NCBI GenBank assembly: GCA_963841735.1
Contig: CAWJDT010000001.1
Span: 1,696,001 to 1,760,000 of the forward strand
Origin: an uncultured Actinomycetes bacterium
GTDB taxonomy: Bacteria > Actinomycetota > Thermoleophilia > RBG-16-64-13
Length of the DNA stretch: 64,000 nt
Direction of reading: 5' to 3'
The notes beneath the pieces are model-generated. The model saw only the letters and a list, made by a program, of their open reading frames with translations. It ran no database searches and was not told the DNA's origin. Below, in pieces: positions 8,731 through 16,511 of the stretch (its first letter is position 1; every line of letters begins with the position of its first letter). Made by a program: the position numbers and the translations under genes.

Positions 8731-8882
8731 CGCGTTCTCATTATCCCATAGCAGTCGGCGGTTCAGGCTCTTCTAAGTAGGGGTCGTTCGGCGGAGCTGG
8801 GCAGTCCGGCTGCGGCTGGGCTCGACGGAGTGTGTGTTACCATACCGGCGGCGTATGCCACAAAAGCAACTGCGAGGTACGC

Positions 8883-10325
8883 ATGCGGATTGTCTTCATT
8901 GAACCCGCCTCTCCGGGTTTTCACATCTATAGTTTCATCAAGCAGATGCGTTTGGGCCTTCCTCTATTGGGAGCCCTCATGACCGAAAGAGGACATGAGG
9001 TGCGCATCTACGCCGAGGCGCTCGACGAGGTCAACTGGGACGACGTTCTGTCGGCCGACTTGGTGGGCATATCGACCACGACTTCCACCTCGGTGCGGGC
9101 CTACCGGTACGCGCAGAGGGTGCGGGAAGCGGGCATACCGGTGGTCATGGGCGGCCCGCACGTCACCTTCCTAGACGACGAGGCAATGGATTTCTGTGAC
9201 TACGTTGCCCGCAACGAAGGGGAAGAGACTCTCATTGCGCTGGTGGAGTATCTGCAGGGTCGGGGCAACCTGGAAAGCATCCTGGGCCTCACCTATCGTG
9301 ACGCGAACGGCAAGGTTGTCCGCAATGCCGACCGTCCGCTACTTGCCTCGCTCAGCGATCTGCCTTGGCCGGACATGAGTCTCGTGGTGGGCGGCGAGAA
9401 AGTGCATCCGAGCCCCATTCTGTCGTCGCGCGGCTGTCCGTTCGGCTGTGAGTTCTGTTCGGTGGTGCTTATGTTCGGGCGCAGAGTCCGCACCATCGAG
9501 CCAGAACAGGTGGTCGCGCGGATAAAGCAGGTGAACCCGAGCAAGATGTTCTTCTACGATGACAACTTCTTTATCAGCAGGCGCCGCGGCAAGGAGCTGC
9601 TTACGCTGATGATCCGGGAGAAGCTGTCGAATCCGTTCTTCGCGCAGATCAGGGTGGATTCCATCTGCAAGGATGGCAAGGTGGACGAAGAACTCCTCGA
9701 TCTGCTGTATACGGCGGGATGCCGCATCGTTTACCTGGGGTTGGAGTCGGTGAACCCGGCGACCCTGAAGGAATATCACAAGGAATCGACCATCGACGAC
9801 ATGGCCGGTGGTCTGGAGGCTCTTCACAAGCGGGGCATCAGCACGCACGGCATGTTCGTCTTTGGGGCCGATTCCGACACTCGCGAAGCTCTGGACAAGA
9901 CGGCGGACTTCGCTGTGGAACATGGTCTCAACAGCGCCCAGTTCCTTGCGTTGACCCCGCTGCCCGGCACCAGGCAGACGGCTCAGCTATTCGCCGATGG
10001 CCGGATATTCACCAAGAACTGGAGTCTCTACGATGGGCATCATGTGGTCTTCTGGCCCCAGCAGATGACTCCGTATGAGCTGCAAGACACCATCAATCGG
10101 GCGCACAAACGTTTCTACAGTGGGCGCAGGGCCATAGCCCGCAAATACGACGGACCGATCATCCGCAAGCACCAGTTGCAGGGGTATCTCATGGCGCGGG
10201 CTTGGGAGCACGTGCGTGAGAACCGTGAATTCATGCGGGATTTGAAGGAATTCTCCGAATCGCATCCTCGGCCGGAGCCGCTGGACGGTTTCTCCAAACC
10301 GGATTTCGGCAAGGCTGGTCTGTAG
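8883..10325 (+). CDS. B12-binding domain radical SAM protein
   Basis: VVMGGPHVT, NEGE, SRGCPFGCEFC (CxxxCxxC), DDN, GLES, TPLPGT. Confidence 0.9.
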   Translation: MRIVFIEPASPGFHIYSFIKQMRLGLPLLGALMTERGHEVRIYAEALDEVNWDDVLSADLVGISTTTSTSVRAYRYAQRVREAGIPVVMGGPHVTFLDDEAMDFCDYVARNEGEETLIALVEYLQGRGNLESILGLTYRDANGKVVRNADRPLLASLSDLPWPDMSLVVGGEKVHPSPILSSRGCPFGCEFCSVVLMFGRRVRTIEPEQVVARIKQVNPSKMFFYDDNFFISRRRGKELLTLMIREKLSNPFFAQIRVDSICKDGKVDEELLDLLYTAGCRIVYLGLESVNPATLKEYHKESTIDDMAGGLEALHKRGISTHGMFVFGADSDTREALDKTADFAVEHGLNSAQFLALTPLPGTRQTAQLFADGRIFTKNWSLYDGHHVVFWPQQMTPYELQDTINRAHKRFYSGRRAIARKYDGPIIRKHQLQGYLMARAWEHVRENREFMRDLKEFSESHPRPEPLDGFSKPDFGKAGL

Positions 10326-10433
10326 CCTCTCGCTCGTCGGAGTTTCTTCGTTCAACAAAGGATTCTTACTGCCATTTGCGAAAGGCTATCAGGACTTGCT
10401 AGCGGAGCTAGGCATTTAGAGCAGGGGGATAGC

Positions 10434-11192
10434 TTGGCCAGAGTGGTGGCCTTTACAAACCAAAAGGGCGGCGTGGCAAAGACCACGACGACTCTGAATC
10501 TTGGGGTTGCCTTCCAAGAGATGGGCCACCGCGTGCTAGTGGTCGATCTCGATCCTCAGGGTAATCTGACCATGAGCCTGGGTCTTGACCCGGACTCAGT
10601 GCGGCCCAGCATGTACGATGTTCTGGTCAGCGGAGTTAGCATTGAGGACGTCATCCGAAATCAGGAACTCGATGTGGCTGTGTCCAATATCGACCTCGCG
10701 GCCGCGGAGATCGCGCTGAGTTCGCTGATAGGGCGGGAGAGGTCTCTCAGTAAGGCCCTGCTGCAGGTGCGCGACACGTACGAGTTCATTCTCATCGACA
10801 CGCCTCCCTCACTGGGCCTTCTCACAATCAACGCCCTCACCGCCTCCGATGCGGTCATAGTCCCGGTGCAGTGTGAATATCTGTCTCTGCGCGGTCTCGC
10901 GCAGCTGGAGCGGACCTTGGAGTTGGTGAGGGACAATCTCAACCCCAACGTGCACATCGGGGGCATCCTGCCCACAATGTATGACTCCCGGACGGTGCAT
11001 GGTAGGGAGGCGGTCGAAGTGCTCCGCGGCAGCTTTGGGGATCTGGTCTACACCACCGAGATACACAAGACCATAAAATTCGCGGAAGCGCCTGTGAAGG
11101 GGCAGTCGGTTCTGAAGTACGCGCCGGACAGCCAGGCGGCTCAAGCATATCGCCAGCTTGCAAGAGAGGTGCTCGATGGAAAAAAGATCTAG
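10434..11192 (+). CDS. parA: ParA/Soj-family ATPase
   Basis: NQKGGVAKTTT, DLDPQGN, IDTPPSLG, PVQCEYLSLRGL, TMYDSRT, FAEAP. Confidence 0.93.
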   Translation: MARVVAFTNQKGGVAKTTTTLNLGVAFQEMGHRVLVVDLDPQGNLTMSLGLDPDSVRPSMYDVLVSGVSIEDVIRNQELDVAVSNIDLAAAEIALSSLIGRERSLSKALLQVRDTYEFILIDTPPSLGLLTINALTASDAVIVPVQCEYLSLRGLAQLERTLELVRDNLNPNVHIGGILPTMYDSRTVHGREAVEVLRGSFGDLVYTTEIHKTIKFAEAPVKGQSVLKYAPDSQAAQAYRQLAREVLDGKKI

Positions 11193-12681
11193 CATGAAGG
11201 ATAGTGGCCTAAGCGCTCTCTTCTTGGCGACGGACACGGCGAAACAGGGCGAGGAGTCGCTCTTGGACGCTGCTCAGGCTGAACAGAAGGCTGAGAAGCC
11301 CGAGCCCGCGTGTCGGAGTCCGGTCTCCAGGTAGGCGAGTCCGCCGATAGCTGCCAGAAAGTGCTCGCTGGGGCTGCTCCAGACGCGACCGGCGGCGGGG
11401 GGGCACGGAGTACCGGTGGGCCAAGACCATACTGTGATGGACGCGCAGGATCGGTCCAGCGCGGGGCGTCGTACTCTCATCCAGCCCTCGTGGAGCTTCC
11501 CGGCCGTTATCAGGGTGGTCGGGGTCGGTGGCGCCGGCACCAATGCTATCAATCGCATGCTCGAAGCGGGCATCAAGGGCGTAGAGTTCATCGCCATCAA
11601 TACCGACTCCCAGGCTCTGGCCATGTGCGAGGCTGATCACAAGCTGCGCATCGGTCATGACCTTACCAAGGGATTGGGCGGTGGCTCCGATCCGAAGGTG
11701 GGCCGCGACGCCGCCTTGGCTGCCTACGACGAGATCAAGAACATGCTCAAGGGCAGCGACATGGTGTTCATCACAGCAGGAGAGGGGGGCGGCACCGGGA
11801 CCGGTGCCGCGCCGGTGGTGGCCGAGATAGCCAAATCCCAAGGGGCGCTTACCATAGGGGTGGTGTCACGCCCCTTCTCGTTCGAGGGCAAGCGACGTGG
11901 CATCCAGGCGTTGGAGGGGGTGCGGGGCTTAAGGCAGCGGGCCGACACGGTCATCGTGGTGCCCAACGACAAGCTACTGGAAGTGGCCGACAAGGGCACC
12001 AGCATGATCGACGCGCTTCGTCTCGCCGATGACGTGCTCCGCCAGGGCGTTCAGGGCATCTGCGATCTGGTGACCGTGCCCGGGTTGATCAACCTCGACC
12101 TGGCCGACGTTCGCACCATCATGACCGGGGCGGGCACCGCTCACATGGGCGTCGGTCACGCCCGGGGCGAACAGCGGGCTCAGAAGGCGGCTGAGATGGC
12201 TCTCAACTCCTCGCTCCTGGAGACCTCCATCCACGGGGCCCGGGGTATTCTTCTCAATATCAGCGGCGGCGGGGATATGGCGCTCTTTGAGATAAACGAG
12301 GTCGCGGAGGCCGTAAGTGCCGAGGCCGCACCCGACGCCAACATAATCTTCGGCGCTGTGGTGGATGAGTCGCTCACCGACTGCCTGTGGGTGACGGTGG
12401 TTGCCACCGGATTCGACGCCACCAGCGATGAGATTCTCACAGCTCAGGTGGAAACGGCGACCAGGCACGACCATTCGGCGGAAAGACCGGCTGTGGAATA
12501 CGGTGTGCAGACGTCCCCGACTTCGAGTGACCAGACGGCTGCGGTGTCCGGCGAGCGGACGCCTGTCCCGCCCGATAGGGCGTTCACCGACCTGCTACCC
12601 AAGCAGGTCTGGACCGAGCCTGACGGCGGAAGCGGTGGTGCTGACGATGACACCCTGGACATACCGGCGTTTCTAAGGTAG
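11176..12681 (+). CDS. ftsZ: FtsZ with long N-terminal extension; either two compensating indels (~11310, ~11400) or a separate 52-aa ORF (11176-11334) plus FtsZ from 11416
   Basis: VVGVGGAGTNA, GEGGGTGTG signature, PFSFEG, T7 loop GLINLDLADV, C-terminal LDIPAFLR; ATG 11176 is in the same frame as the core. Confidence 0.9.
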
Positions 12682-13131
12682 GTTCTGGCGCAGGTCCCGC
12701 TCGTAGTAGAGGCTGGTCTTTTCAGCGAGGCCCAGCCTGCGGTAGAAGGCGTGGGCGCCCAGGTTCCACGACTCCGCCGATAGATAGAGCCTGCTGCAGC
12801 CGCGGGCCCGGGCGATCGTCTCGGCCGACTGCAAGAGGCTTCGGCCCACGCCAGAACTGCGGTACGCTTGCGTCACGAGCACGTCCTGGAGCTCGCACAC
12901 CAATCCCGCCGACCACGTGCTAAGCGAGAAGACAAGGGCGCACATGCCGATCAGACGGCCTTGGCGGTCGGCCACCAGCAGGAGGTGGTCGTCGGCGGCG
13001 AGAATGGCGGAGACCGTGGCGGTGAGGGGTTCGGCATCGGGGGGAGTGACGCCGTGGTGCGTCATGATCTCTTCCAGAAGAGAGAGTATCTGAGGCGTGT
13101 CTGAAGGTGTGGCCTGTCGGTAAGCGATCAT
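12673..13131 (-). CDS. GNAT acetyltransferase
   Basis: VLVTQAYRSSGVGRSLL, NLGAHAFYRRLG. Confidence 0.85.
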   Translation of the reverse strand: MIAYRQATPSDTPQILSLLEEIMTHHGVTPPDAEPLTATVSAILAADDHLLLVADRQGRLIGMCALVFSLSTWSAGLVCELQDVLVTQAYRSSGVGRSLLQSAETIARARGCSRLYLSAESWNLGAHAFYRRLGLAEKTSLYYERDLRQNLP

Positions 13132-13148: not shown

Positions 13149-14055
13149 ATGGACGTGGAGACGCTTTATCTGAACGGGAGCTTCCTGCCCCTCTCCGAGG
13201 GTCGCATCCCCGTGGAAGACCGGGGCTTCGAGTTGGGCGACGGCGTGTACGAGGTGGTAAAGGTCATGAACCGCCAGGTGGTCTGGCCGGACGACCATCT
13301 GCAGCGGCTTGGACGGTCCCTGGCGGCGATCAGTCTGACTGAGGCCATCGTCGGTCACAAGCTCGAGGAGGTGCTCCCCGAACTTGTGACCCGCTCCGGG
13401 ATCGAACACGGTTGGGTGTATCTGCAGGTCACCAGGGGAGTCGCCGGCCGCGAGTTCGAGTTCCCCGCGAGTCCGCACCCCACGGTGCTCGCCTATGCCC
13501 GGGTCAACCCGGCGCCGACGATTGCGAAGATCCTGACCGGAACGGTGCTTCATCCCGTAGAAGACATCCGCTGGGCTCGTTGCGACATCAAGTCCACCAA
13601 CCTGCTGGCGGCTGTGCTGGCCAAGGAGGAGGCGCGGAGCGCGGGGGCTCGATGAGGCGCTCTTCGTCGCTCCCGACGGGACGGTGCGGGAGGGGGGTTC
13701 GTCCAACGTGTTCGCCGTGGTGGGCGGCGTCCTGCGGACACATCCGCTCAACAACCGCATTTTGGGCGGCATCACCCGTCTGCACGGTCTGCGCATGGCC
13801 CGCGCGGCGGGCTATAGGGTAGAGGAGCGGGCCTTCACTCTGGACGAGGTGACGTCTGATGCCGCCGTCGGATGTGAGGTCTTCACGGCCTCCACCACCA
13901 AAGACATCCTGCCCGTGGTCAGGATTGGAGCGCATTTGATCGGCAATGGGCGCCCCGGTCCGGTCACCTTGGCGCTTTTGGACATGATGCGCCGGGAGCA
14001 GGCTCTGTTCGTGGGGTTGGAGCCCCCCGCTCCGCTGGCGCTCGAGTCTCGCTGA
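13149..14055 (+). CDS. dat: Class IV aminotransferase (D-amino acid aminotransferase-like), indel near 13645
   Basis: EDRGFELGDGVYEV, YLQVTRG, RWARCDIKSTNLL, EGGSSNVF, ILGGITR, TASTT, PGPVT. Confidence 0.88.
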
Positions 14056-15025: not shown

Positions 15026-15086
15026 GTTGGGTGAGCCCTCTCATGTCGGGTGATTTCGTCCCCTGGCGCAGAGGATATACAATCGG

Positions 15087-15163
15087 GGCGACCGGCGACC
15101 GGCGACCGGCGACCGGCGACCGGCGACCGGCGACCGACGACCGGCGACCGGCGACCGGCGACC
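15087..15163. repeat. Heptamer tandem repeat (GGCGACC) x11, one variant GACGACC
   Basis: Counted directly; lies in the intergenic region between divergent nfo and the glycosyltransferase. Confidence 0.95.
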
Positions 15164-15205
15164 GACCATCCCTAGCGCCGGCGACAAGGCCGGCAGGGGG
15201 CCAGC

Positions 15206-16511
15206 ATGAAGCGAGGCGGGGCCACGGATGAACAGGGCGGGGCCATCCCCAAGCGCGCCGTCCGCGACGGCGCCAACGCTGTCGTCCGCGGCAGCGGGGG
15301 ACCAGCCGCATGTGCCCGCATCACTCCCGGCGCGGCGGGACTGGCCGTGTGGGCCCTCGAGCCCTATTTCGGCGGTTCGCATCGGTCGTTTCTGGAGGGT
15401 CTAGCCTGCTACTCGAGCCATGAAGTCGCTCTTCTCACCATGCCGGGGCGCAACTGGAAGTGGCGTATGCACGGAGGGGCCCTGACTCTGGCCCGGCGCG
15501 CGCTGGAACGACATCGGGAGACGGGCGAGCCGCCTCAGGTCTTCGTGGCCTCCGACATGCTCGATCTGCCGGTTCTTTTGGCCGCCGTGACCCCGACCCT
15601 CGGGCGGATCCCTACACTTCTCTACTTCCACGAGAATCAACTTACGTATCCCCTGCCGCCAGGAGTAGAGCGCGATCTCGGCTACGGGTTCAAGAACCTG
15701 GCCGGGGCGCTGTTGGCTGACATTGTCTTGTTCAACAGTGAGTTCCACCGGAGGGAGTTCCTAGCGGCGGCGTCCGATCTACTTGCCGCGATGCCTGACG
15801 AAGTGCCCTCCTGGGTAATGGGGGAGGTTGAAGCTCGAGCGAGCGTGCTTCCGGTGGGATGCGATCTTCGCCGTTTTGAGTGCCACCGGGCCCGGGCCCT
15901 TGCCGAGTCGGCCGGCGGACGATGGGGTGACCCGAGCAGACGGGCCCCTGCTTCTCTGGAATCAGCGCTGGGAGTACGACAAGGCGCCTGAAGAGCTGTT
16001 CCGGGCCCTATACGAGTTGAAGGCGGCTGGGACGCCCTTCCGCCTGGCGATGGCTGGGACGAACCAGGGCACTCCCACAGCCGTCTTCTTGCGGGCCAAG
16101 GAAGAGTTGGCCGACCATGTTGTGCAGTGGGGCAAGGTGGGGAAGGCCGCCGACTACGCCTCGCTCCTGTGGGCCGCCGATGTGGTGGTCTCCACCGCCG
16201 TCCACGAGTTCTTCGGTATCGCCGTGGTGGAAGCCATGTATTGCGGGTGTCGGCCGGTCTTGCCCAACAGGTTGAGCTACCCAGAACTGGTGCCGCGGGA
16301 GATGTACGCCGAAGTGCTCTACGAGCACACCGGGCTGGTGGCTGCGCTGGGGAGGGCATTGGCGCAGCCACGCGCCTGGCCGGAGGACTGGCAGCGCGCT
16401 TGGGTGGCCCGGTTCGACTGGGGCAGCCTGCGGACCCGCTATGATGAACACATCAGACAGTGTTGGGAGAGCGCTACGCGCCGGCGGGAACCTATGTGTC
16501 CCGGGCGGTAG
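15206..16511 (+). CDS. DUF3524/GTDC1-like GT-B glycosyltransferase (indel near 15935)
   Basis: LEPYFGGSH, WKWRMHGGA, DMLDL, YFHENQLTYP, FNSEFH, LWNQRWEYDK, STAVHEFFG, LSYPE. Confidence 0.85.

Follow-up and report, generated by a model that had tools for sequence, protein, structure and literature searches.

What does a ParA-type ATPase gene do directly in front of an ftsZ gene, when no parB adjoins it and the FtsZ that follows begins with a conserved peptide of its own? The question is raised by a 64,000-nucleotide (nt) stretch of DNA, hereafter the window, from an uncultured Actinomycetes bacterium of the Thermoleophilia (lineage RBG-16-64-13; assembly GCA_963841735.1, contig CAWJDT010000001.1, positions 1,696,001 to 1,760,000 of the forward strand), in which such a pair, here called parA2 and ftsZ2, occupies positions 10,434 to 12,681. 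A first-pass annotation made from the letters alone had described it as a ParA coupled to an FtsZ carrying a ParB/Spo0J-like N-terminal peptide, and thus as a candidate module for the positioning of division. Every statement made there about the sequence itself held, but the kinship of the peptide turned out differently: from profile comparisons, the detectable relative of this N-terminal tail appears to be the tail of a small, unnamed protein encoded directly after ParA2/PldP-type genes outside the class to which the window belongs.

The ATG at 11176 opens MEKRSSMKDSGLSALF; it sits 17 nt within parA and is preceded by a GAGAGG stretch. The FtsZ open reading frame (ORF) at 11416..12681, of 421 amino acids (aa), shares its frame, as the first-pass annotation had stated. 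The window parA matches the Pfam family AAA_31 along its whole length (203 bits, profile positions 2-177 of 177), and the remark that no parB adjoins it was borne out by the lack of a ParB_N match beside it. The 52-residue piece that runs from ATG 11176 gave no Pfam match. When 61 related genomes were searched with this piece, the matches headed open frames of ~410-520 aa, and each of the 29 related loci (L011-L039) has the peptide at the start of an FtsZ frame. In 26 of the 29 the frame runs uninterrupted to an end of the type [DE]-[LIV]-P-x-F-L, while two copies (G012 and G020) are broken and one (G031) ends differently. The first 20 residues of the tail are nearly invariant in the relatives (MEKRSSMKDSGLSSLFRATE), and a variable acidic tether follows. 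Among the peptide-bearing database proteins (E <= 1), 39 of 39 are FtsZ-sized and 38 have a Tubulin domain. No related locus examined lacks the peptide or the gene order, so that the observation lies beyond chance, and in the relatives peptide and FtsZ form one protein.

The same arrangement was found in more distant genomes. A first tail profile matched 170 of 301 genomes of the Thermoleophilia-like class, and in 20 of 20 loci from nine other families a ParA gene overlaps an FtsZ gene whose product starts [KR]R[AS]SM[RK][ED]GPLxxLF[RK]xT[ED]. With a class-wide profile built from 43 tails (A4), the phylum sample gave matches in 31 of 31 class genomes versus one of 369 genomes outside the class (E 0.004, in a 68-aa frame). 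ParA lies directly upstream of FtsZ2 in 47 of 49 loci, with a stop/start overlap in 43 of 44. The check for parA-ftsZ synteny and peptide conservation that the first-pass annotation had proposed therefore came out positive for both across the whole class, and the parA2-ftsZ2 pair is class-wide in, and largely specific to, the Thermoleophilia-like class. Congruently, FtsZ_C matches across the 301 class genomes number two in 276, three in 10, one in 13 and none in 2. Three of the single-FtsZ genomes (G092, G174 and G088) are also without a ParA2 orthologue; we rejected this as a sign of coupling, since a gap in an assembly removes neighbouring genes jointly.

Within the tail, alignments A2 and A4 show S6, L15 and F16 as invariant and R4, L12 and T19 as present in at least 90% of the sequences. 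Some variants deserve to be recorded. In one genus of the window's family (L144, G024) the tail is shortened to MERRSSSNGFDSLFRPT, which aligns gap-free to RRASLPGADELFRxT, the tail of the small protein described below. In family f2 the tail heads two frames of 860 and 843 aa (G042:C1:987796 and G068:C1:1407972), far beyond the length of other FtsZ2, which may reflect very long tethers or an extra domain.

To the eye, the tail resembles the ParB/Spo0J N-terminal motif: both have an M-x-K-R start and G-L-x-x-L-[LF]. The window tail, however, is without the LG[RK]GL core, and the ParB N-termini of relatives read MAK[KR]P[GA]LGRGLAALLGE. We scored it with a profile of 24 ParB N-termini from relatives, from which the genome's own ParB had been left out. 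That ParB scored 37 bits, whereas the window tail reached 4.1 bits and rank 298 of 70,518 candidate N-termini. The resemblance is thus visible by eye but has no statistical support, and kinship with the ParB/Spo0J N-terminus, as the first-pass annotation had it, is not supported.

A relative was found beside ParA2-type genes outside the class. In 14 of 14 loci examined there (L177-L182, L184, L185, L188, L192, L194, L214, L216 and L217), the gene is directly followed by a small ORF of ~112-165 aa, the product of which starts with [KR]R[AV][SN]LPGA[DS]ELFRxT and continues with a variable tether up to a conserved C-terminal end, RHEEKVTFYCT...DRGRIVREAL. Comparison of the FtsZ2 tails with the small proteins by hhalign aligned N-terminus to N-terminus over 23 columns (E 1.2e-4). 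We then built a profile from 49 small-protein tails, none of them from the class, and applied it to the 70,518 background N-termini of this genome together with 44 class tails. Five FtsZ2 tails from families f3, f2 and f5 (12.4-14.6 bits) outscored the best background N-terminus (10.7 bits), and 19 of the 44 class tails ranked in the top 45. Both tail families (alignments A4 and A7) have an invariant Ser in RR-x-S and a near-invariant Thr after LFR-x; the two residues are possible phosphorylation sites.

The small protein belongs to no Pfam family. At least 7994 database clusters match it, every source name given being "hypothetical protein", and its atlas clusters bear either no name or, wrongly, that of the adjacent ParA; records of Streptomyces, Aestuariimicrobium and Egicoccus contain exact copies. 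AlphaFold2 predicted its last 65 residues with a local confidence score (pLDDT) above 90, as an extended stretch followed by helices at 59-76, 82-103 and 105-113. An exhaustive structural aligner returned mostly ribbon-helix-helix proteins, including TraM, PutA, NikR, omega, Arc, Mnt, antitoxins, the ParB of pCXC100 (Z 4.5) and ParG (Z 3.9), at Z scores of 3.8-6.5 that fall below the level the aligner regards as safe. From this model, the C-terminal domain of the small protein is probably a DNA-binding ribbon-helix-helix domain.

The small protein was present in 86 of 401 phylum genomes, in none of the 31 class genomes and not in the genome studied here. By family, it was found in 25 of 26 (f13), 19 of 21 (f18), 17 of 21 (f22) and 10 of 10 (f31) genomes, tallies that rest partly on genomes flagged as unpublished (11 of the 86). 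The two carriers of the tail, the small protein and FtsZ2, are mutually exclusive. When longer proteins with the small-protein tail were sought, 24 candidates came up, none with E <= 10, which is weak evidence.

Next, we considered the ParA encoded in front of both carriers. Its Walker A motif (KGGxxK[ST] type, with the signature lysine) is invariant in 43 of 43 sequences, as in the ParA/Soj ATPases. Also invariant in all 43 are R186 and K212, which are matched by R residues in the alignment with the ParA that is linked to ParB in this genome and which are presumably the Soj positions for non-specific DNA binding. The best solved relatives of the window ParA are 4pfs/5ihp/5if9 (205 bits), of which 4pfs is presumably the M. 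smegmatis homologue, and 8ray; Thermus Soj scored 180 bits and Helicobacter Soj 145 bits. The best ParA matches outside the class, in 151 phylum genomes, share 43-55% identity. A quick maximum-likelihood tree of 57 rows split the ParB-linked ParA (20 rows) from a 37-row clade with a support of 99; within the latter fall the class ParA2 (support 99), the small-protein-linked ParA that are the best matches outside the class (support 96) and a third paralogue, known from two families. By its place in the tree and its sequence matches, the window ParA is assigned to the actinobacterial ParA2/PldP group. Across 12 further families, 16 loci were inspected for what follows the best ParA match: ParB in 13, a tail ORF in none. 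As for the third paralogue (L201, L203, L205, L206, L211 and L213; families f13 and f22), neither ParB nor a tail ORF comes after it, and in f13 a small Cys-rich ORF (FFCPDCNEDHYL...) stands in front of it.

A second parA-like gene (SCO1772, parA2) is described for all actinobacteria in the consulted part of PMC4255298, and its C. glutamicum product, named PldP, affects division-site selection. Along the same lines, the consulted parts of 10.1101/2025.07.02.662783 and PMC4255298 report that PldP affects septum placement and is found on the nucleoid and at septa. The former also gives the PldP partner as still to be identified and states that ParB does not stimulate PldP (10.1101/2025.07.02.662783).

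The genomic context ties the two carriers together. A Streptomyces locus runs alanine dehydrogenase (ald)-ParA-small ORF-ScpA-ScpB, and in family f3 scpA comes after FtsZ2 in 2 of 2 loci, so the slot of the small protein before scpA in Streptomyces is the FtsZ2 slot of family f3; in the window's genome scpA sits on another contig (C4). The ancestral operon, parA2-small gene-scpA-scpB, also speaks for a rival in which the tail binds some other partner (ScpA/SMC, ParB, or a kinase for which the invariant RRxS serine is the target) and the gene order reflects shared regulation within a chromosome-organisation operon. Such a partner would fit the invariance, or near invariance, of S6 and T19, and Rv1708 is reported to bind ParB and ScpA in the consulted part of PMC10482377. 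However, the window's family and most class families have lost the adjacency of scpAB but always keep that of parA2, and its stop/start overlap with ftsZ2 is the feature kept in nearly all loci. In ribbon-helix-helix partition adaptors, N-terminal tails act on the adjacent ParA as a rule, ParG-ParF being the example. On balance we consider another partner unlikely.

We then asked what kind of protein bears the tail in the class. The window ORF matched Tubulin with 158 bits (cut-off 33, residues 32-191) and FtsZ_C with 116.7 bits (cut-off 27, residues 240-334), and an intact FtsZ2 orthologue reached 400.6 bits with TIGR00065 against a cut-off of 295.2. G182-G188 (GGGTGTG) and the T7 residues N284, D286 and D289 are invariant in 41 of 41 FtsZ2, and a P-x-F motif lies within the last 14 residues in 37 of the 41. 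In the window, GGGTGTG, the T7 loop (NLDLADV) and the DIPAFLR of the terminal DTLDIPAFLR are all present, as had been noticed at first pass. Curated models, GTP-binding and T7 signatures and C-terminal peptide all agree with membership in the FtsZ family, and, with these GTP-binding and T7 residues unchanged throughout, FtsZ2 is apparently a functional second FtsZ. The tether, measurable in 33 of 41 sequences, has 29-153 aa (median 69) and is 20% acidic.

The genome holds two FtsZ_C matches. The other one is the dcw FtsZ, on C4, in the order murB-ftsQ(POTRA)-ftsZ-yfiH-like (Cu-oxidase_4)-yggS-like-sepF-divIVA, and the window FtsZ2 shares 55% identity with it. FtsZ2 has neither the dcw location nor the single copy of a primary division FtsZ; its flanks are radical-SAM/ParA genes on one side and GNAT genes on the other, in agreement with the absence of dcw neighbours reported earlier. 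Similarly, the sole ParB_N match of the genome (C1:698399-698671) follows another full-length ParA, in a gidA-rsmG-parA-parB cluster at C1:694848-699175. The window ParA is 42% identical to this ParB-linked ParA and lacks the adjacent ParB, with its ParB_N domain, of a chromosomal ParABS system. A second, dcw-linked ftsZ, which the first-pass annotation had suggested looking for, thus exists on C4, as does a separate parA-parB on C1.

AlphaFold2 modelled an intact FtsZ2 orthologue with a core (residues 88-410) of pLDDT above 90 and with residues 1-66 at 41-55, including a short helix at 14-20 that is not packed on the core. This helix, and the spacing of L12, L15 and F16 as on one helix face, would also suit an amphipathic membrane-binding tail by which FtsZ2 attaches without FtsA or SepF, the ParA being only a co-expressed neighbour; Katayama et al. 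2020 proposed such membrane binding for Atribacter laminatus, whose second FtsZ has an N-terminal extension (PMC7736352). But the helical segment has a neutral to acidic charge (LAELFRATE, SSLFRATE), the common C-terminal peptide for the recruitment of membrane tethers is retained in most FtsZ2 (37 of 41), and the same tail stands on a small protein with a probable DNA-binding fold, where a membrane anchor makes little sense. Moreover, both tail carriers always adjoin ParA2-type genes. We therefore hold a membrane-binding tail to be very unlikely.

A tail that is shared with a ParA2-linked small protein is probably a ParA2 docking and activating element that was moved onto FtsZ. The reading that we favour, by a modest step beyond an even chance, is that in the class ancestor an FtsZ took the place of the small protein's DNA-binding domain behind the shared tail, and that the tail docks on and activates ParA2, whereby FtsZ2 is positioned. 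The locus would then be a two-gene module, in which a ParA2/PldP-type ATPase is followed by a complete FtsZ2 with a conserved tail on a floppy acidic tether. ATP-bound ParA2 dimers would coat the nucleoid, the FtsZ2 tail would dock on these dimers and stimulate ATP hydrolysis, and the resulting ParA2 gradient would place FtsZ2 polymers or keep them off. The polymers, in turn, could bias the site of the division ring through their normal C-terminal peptide and possibly through co-assembly with the dcw FtsZ. What the comparisons show is the gene structure, the paralogy, the conservation, the place of the ParA in the ParA2 group, the kinship of the tails and the equivalence of the slots. That the tail docks on ParA2 and activates its ATPase, that ParA2 binds the nucleoid and that division is affected is suggested by analogy with ParG-ParF, MinE-MinD and PomX-PomZ.

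Several results weigh against this reading. The hhalign match between the two sets of tails has a probability of only 55%. The window's own tail scores -0.9 bits with the small-protein tail profile, at rank 9774 of 70,518, which means that the link of kinship runs through the class alignment and the tails of other families. In the window (11224-11226) and its nearest relative (L011), moreover, the residue after the invariant LF is a Leu (ALFLAT vs SLFRAT), and nearly all others have Arg or Lys there. The loci outside the class were chosen from best matches and are thus not a random sample. Foldseek returned nothing at E <= 0.001 for the small protein against the PDB, and its ribbon-helix-helix matches have the low Z scores given above. 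In the ParA tree, the class ParA2 is sister to the third paralogue with a support of only 91, so that strict orthology of the class ParA2 to the small-protein-linked ParA is not resolved. Lastly, C. glutamicum PldP has been linked to TatA dynamics in the consulted part of 10.1101/2025.07.02.662783, and together with the unidentified PldP partner this leaves the division role unsettled even in C. glutamicum.

Two questions bear on the significance of the proposal, namely how division sites are chosen in Actinomycetota without Min or Noc and what the universal second ParA (PldP/ParA2) does. The locus amounts to two natural experiments, with a portable tail of 15-20 residues that always accompanies ParA2-type genes and one class that put this tail on FtsZ. 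A broader proposal, which we advance tentatively and with somewhat less than even confidence, is that the tail is the missing PldP partner element, carried mostly by a small ribbon-helix-helix protein, in a chromosomal type-Ib-like pair beside scpAB, and in one class by a duplicated FtsZ, so that a nucleoid ParA gradient patterns FtsZ2 without an adaptor. If true, a nucleoid ParA gradient would directly pattern a tubulin-like polymer, and bacteria without Min and nucleoid-occlusion systems would have a new form of division-site selection, or of coupling between division and chromosome organisation. Streptomyces offers a genetically tractable organism in which to study the small protein.

One feature of the window copy calls for separate treatment, as its tether is interrupted by an in-frame TAG. 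The G run downstream of it counts seven G, and frame +2 is open from ~11310 to beyond 11403; with one base lost near 11309-11311 and one G too many in the run, the reading frame would therefore avoid the TAG, which is frame arithmetic and not proof of a sequence error. It is in frame +2, not in frame 0, that the window at ~11325-11345 looks like its nearest relative, G004 (QVGESADS vs PVGEAGDE), which is weak evidence given the low conservation of the tether. The reading frame of the tether was not revealed by codon-position GC in 60-nt windows, and contigs from four sequencing runs leave 11274-11443 uncovered, no listed run having contained more than 0.08 of the words and none of those containing them being RNA. 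The source assembly comprises 2.82 megabases in 8 contigs and is 89.7% complete, and other frame-split genes in it adjoin G runs. The broken FtsZ2 copies elsewhere (G012, G020 and G291) are likewise from assemblies of ~10 contigs.

Two further split genes were observed in this genome. The class IV aminotransferase gene at 13149-14055 (+) lies in two frames, with 13149-13655 matching profile positions 1-135 and 13684-14055 matching 149-223; the split is probably an assembly insertion or deletion (indel), as runs of five and six G stand at the junction. In the yfiH-like Cu-oxidase_4 gene after the dcw ftsZ (L236, G000:C4, 3663-4413), one frame matches only profile positions 110-238 and the overlapping ORF in another frame has no family, which probably marks another frameshift.

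Taken together, the TAG in the window is most likely an assembly artefact, probably caused by two indels. The claim of the first-pass annotation that the stop is bypassed if two indels are errors stands as far as the arithmetic and the 26 of 29 uninterrupted relatives go. Its alternative of a separate 52-aa adaptor does not apply to the relatives, in which peptide and FtsZ share one frame, and could hold at most for this assembly. A gene truly split or dying here would yield the 52-aa tail peptide on its own and, from a start near 11416-11437, an FtsZ that lacks the tail; GTG 11416 and ATG 11437 could restart translation there. The deposited sequence does contain the TAG, and no read data contradict it. 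This would, however, require two compensating changes, one of them within the G7 run, in a gene that is uninterrupted in most related loci, nearest relative G004 included. The incompleteness of the 8-contig assembly, the origin of the other broken copies in ~10-contig assemblies, and the frame-splits of the aminotransferase gene beside G runs and probably of the yfiH-like gene on C4 speak for an artefact as well. A true split is, in our judgement, unlikely.

The coordinates of the locus are collected in Table 1. Downstream of FtsZ2 lie a convergent GNAT gene and then the class IV aminotransferase gene, and by Pfam none of the flanking genes is a dcw gene. The B12-binding radical-SAM gene at 8832-10325 (+) also stands immediately before parA2-ftsZ2 in the related loci of the window's family. 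A promoter and terminator scan of 10200-12900 found nothing above shuffles. Further downstream, at ~15040-15320, the two strands translate into tandem units of seven residues, one strand into ATGDRRP and the other into PVAGRRS, which indicates a short intergenic tandem DNA repeat of 21 nt.

Table 1. Features of the parA2-ftsZ2 locus, in window positions.
Feature	Position	Strand	Basis or remark
parA2, orphan ParA/Soj-type ATPase assigned to the ParA2/PldP group, 252 aa, deviant Walker A NQKGGVAKT	10434..11192	+	ORF and Pfam
FtsZ2 N-terminal tail, conserved, 20 residues, MEKRSSMKDSGLSALFLATD	11176..11235	+	start overlaps parA2 by 17 nt
Tether from tail to FtsZ core, variable, acidic, Pro/Ala/Gly-rich	11236..11508	+	interrupted in this assembly
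Probable one-base loss, position approximate; frame 0 passes to frame +2	11309..11311	+	likeness to relative G004
In-frame TAG	11332..11334	+	sole stop between tail and FtsZ core
G7 homopolymer, probable one extra base restoring frame 0	11397..11403	+	
FtsZ core (GTPase domain and FtsZ C-terminal domain)	11509..12417	+	Pfam Tubulin, FtsZ_C
C-terminal linker and conserved C-terminal peptide DTLDIPAFLR, then stop	12418..12681	+	
Radical-SAM/B12-binding gene	8832..10325	+	Pfam; syntenic upstream neighbour in the window's family

A literature search, with subscription journals outside its coverage, found no published account of a ParA-FtsZ2 coupling, of the tail or of the small protein, and nothing relevant under SCO1772, SCO1771 or ParH. 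The new element is the link between the FtsZ2 tail and the unnamed ParA2-linked small protein, which, as far as the sequence comparisons reach, points to an undescribed direct connection between ParA and FtsZ.

Among known systems, PldP (Cg1610), Rv1708/MSMEG_3743 and SCO1772 come closest on the side of the ATPase. The window ParA falls in the same non-ParB-linked clade, with 4pfs/5if9 as its best solved relatives, and a parA2-...-scpA-scpB context is common to family f3 and Streptomyces; no FtsZ fusion or tail-bearing small protein, however, is described for PldP in the literature found. The second FtsZ of Atribacter laminatus, compared by description only, likewise has an N-terminal extension, lies away from ftsA and coexists with a conventional FtsZ. 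It belongs to a different phylum, though, its extension is read as a membrane-binding amphipathic helix, and the consulted part of that account does not mention ParA (PMC7736352).

On the side of division, PomXYZ of Myxococcus xanthus and MipZ of Caulobacter also tie a nucleoid-associated ParA-family ATPase to the positioning of FtsZ, and the window ParA2 gave a partial match of 44 bits to the MipZ Pfam model. In those systems an ordinary FtsZ is acted on through separate adaptors or by direct inhibition, while here an FtsZ paralogue itself bears the tail. PomX activates PomZ through an N-terminal peptide. The type Ib pairs, ParF-ParG of TP228 and ParA-ParB of pCXC100, offer the nearest parallel in layout, with a ParA gene followed by that of a partner with a basic N-terminal tail on a disordered stretch, and the N-terminal tail of ParG activates ParF. 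The small protein found outside the class gives ribbon-helix-helix fold matches, these two adaptors among them, a likeness by fold. The window protein, in contrast, has no ribbon-helix-helix domain, a whole FtsZ core standing in the place of the DNA-binding domain, and its locus is chromosomal and class-wide.

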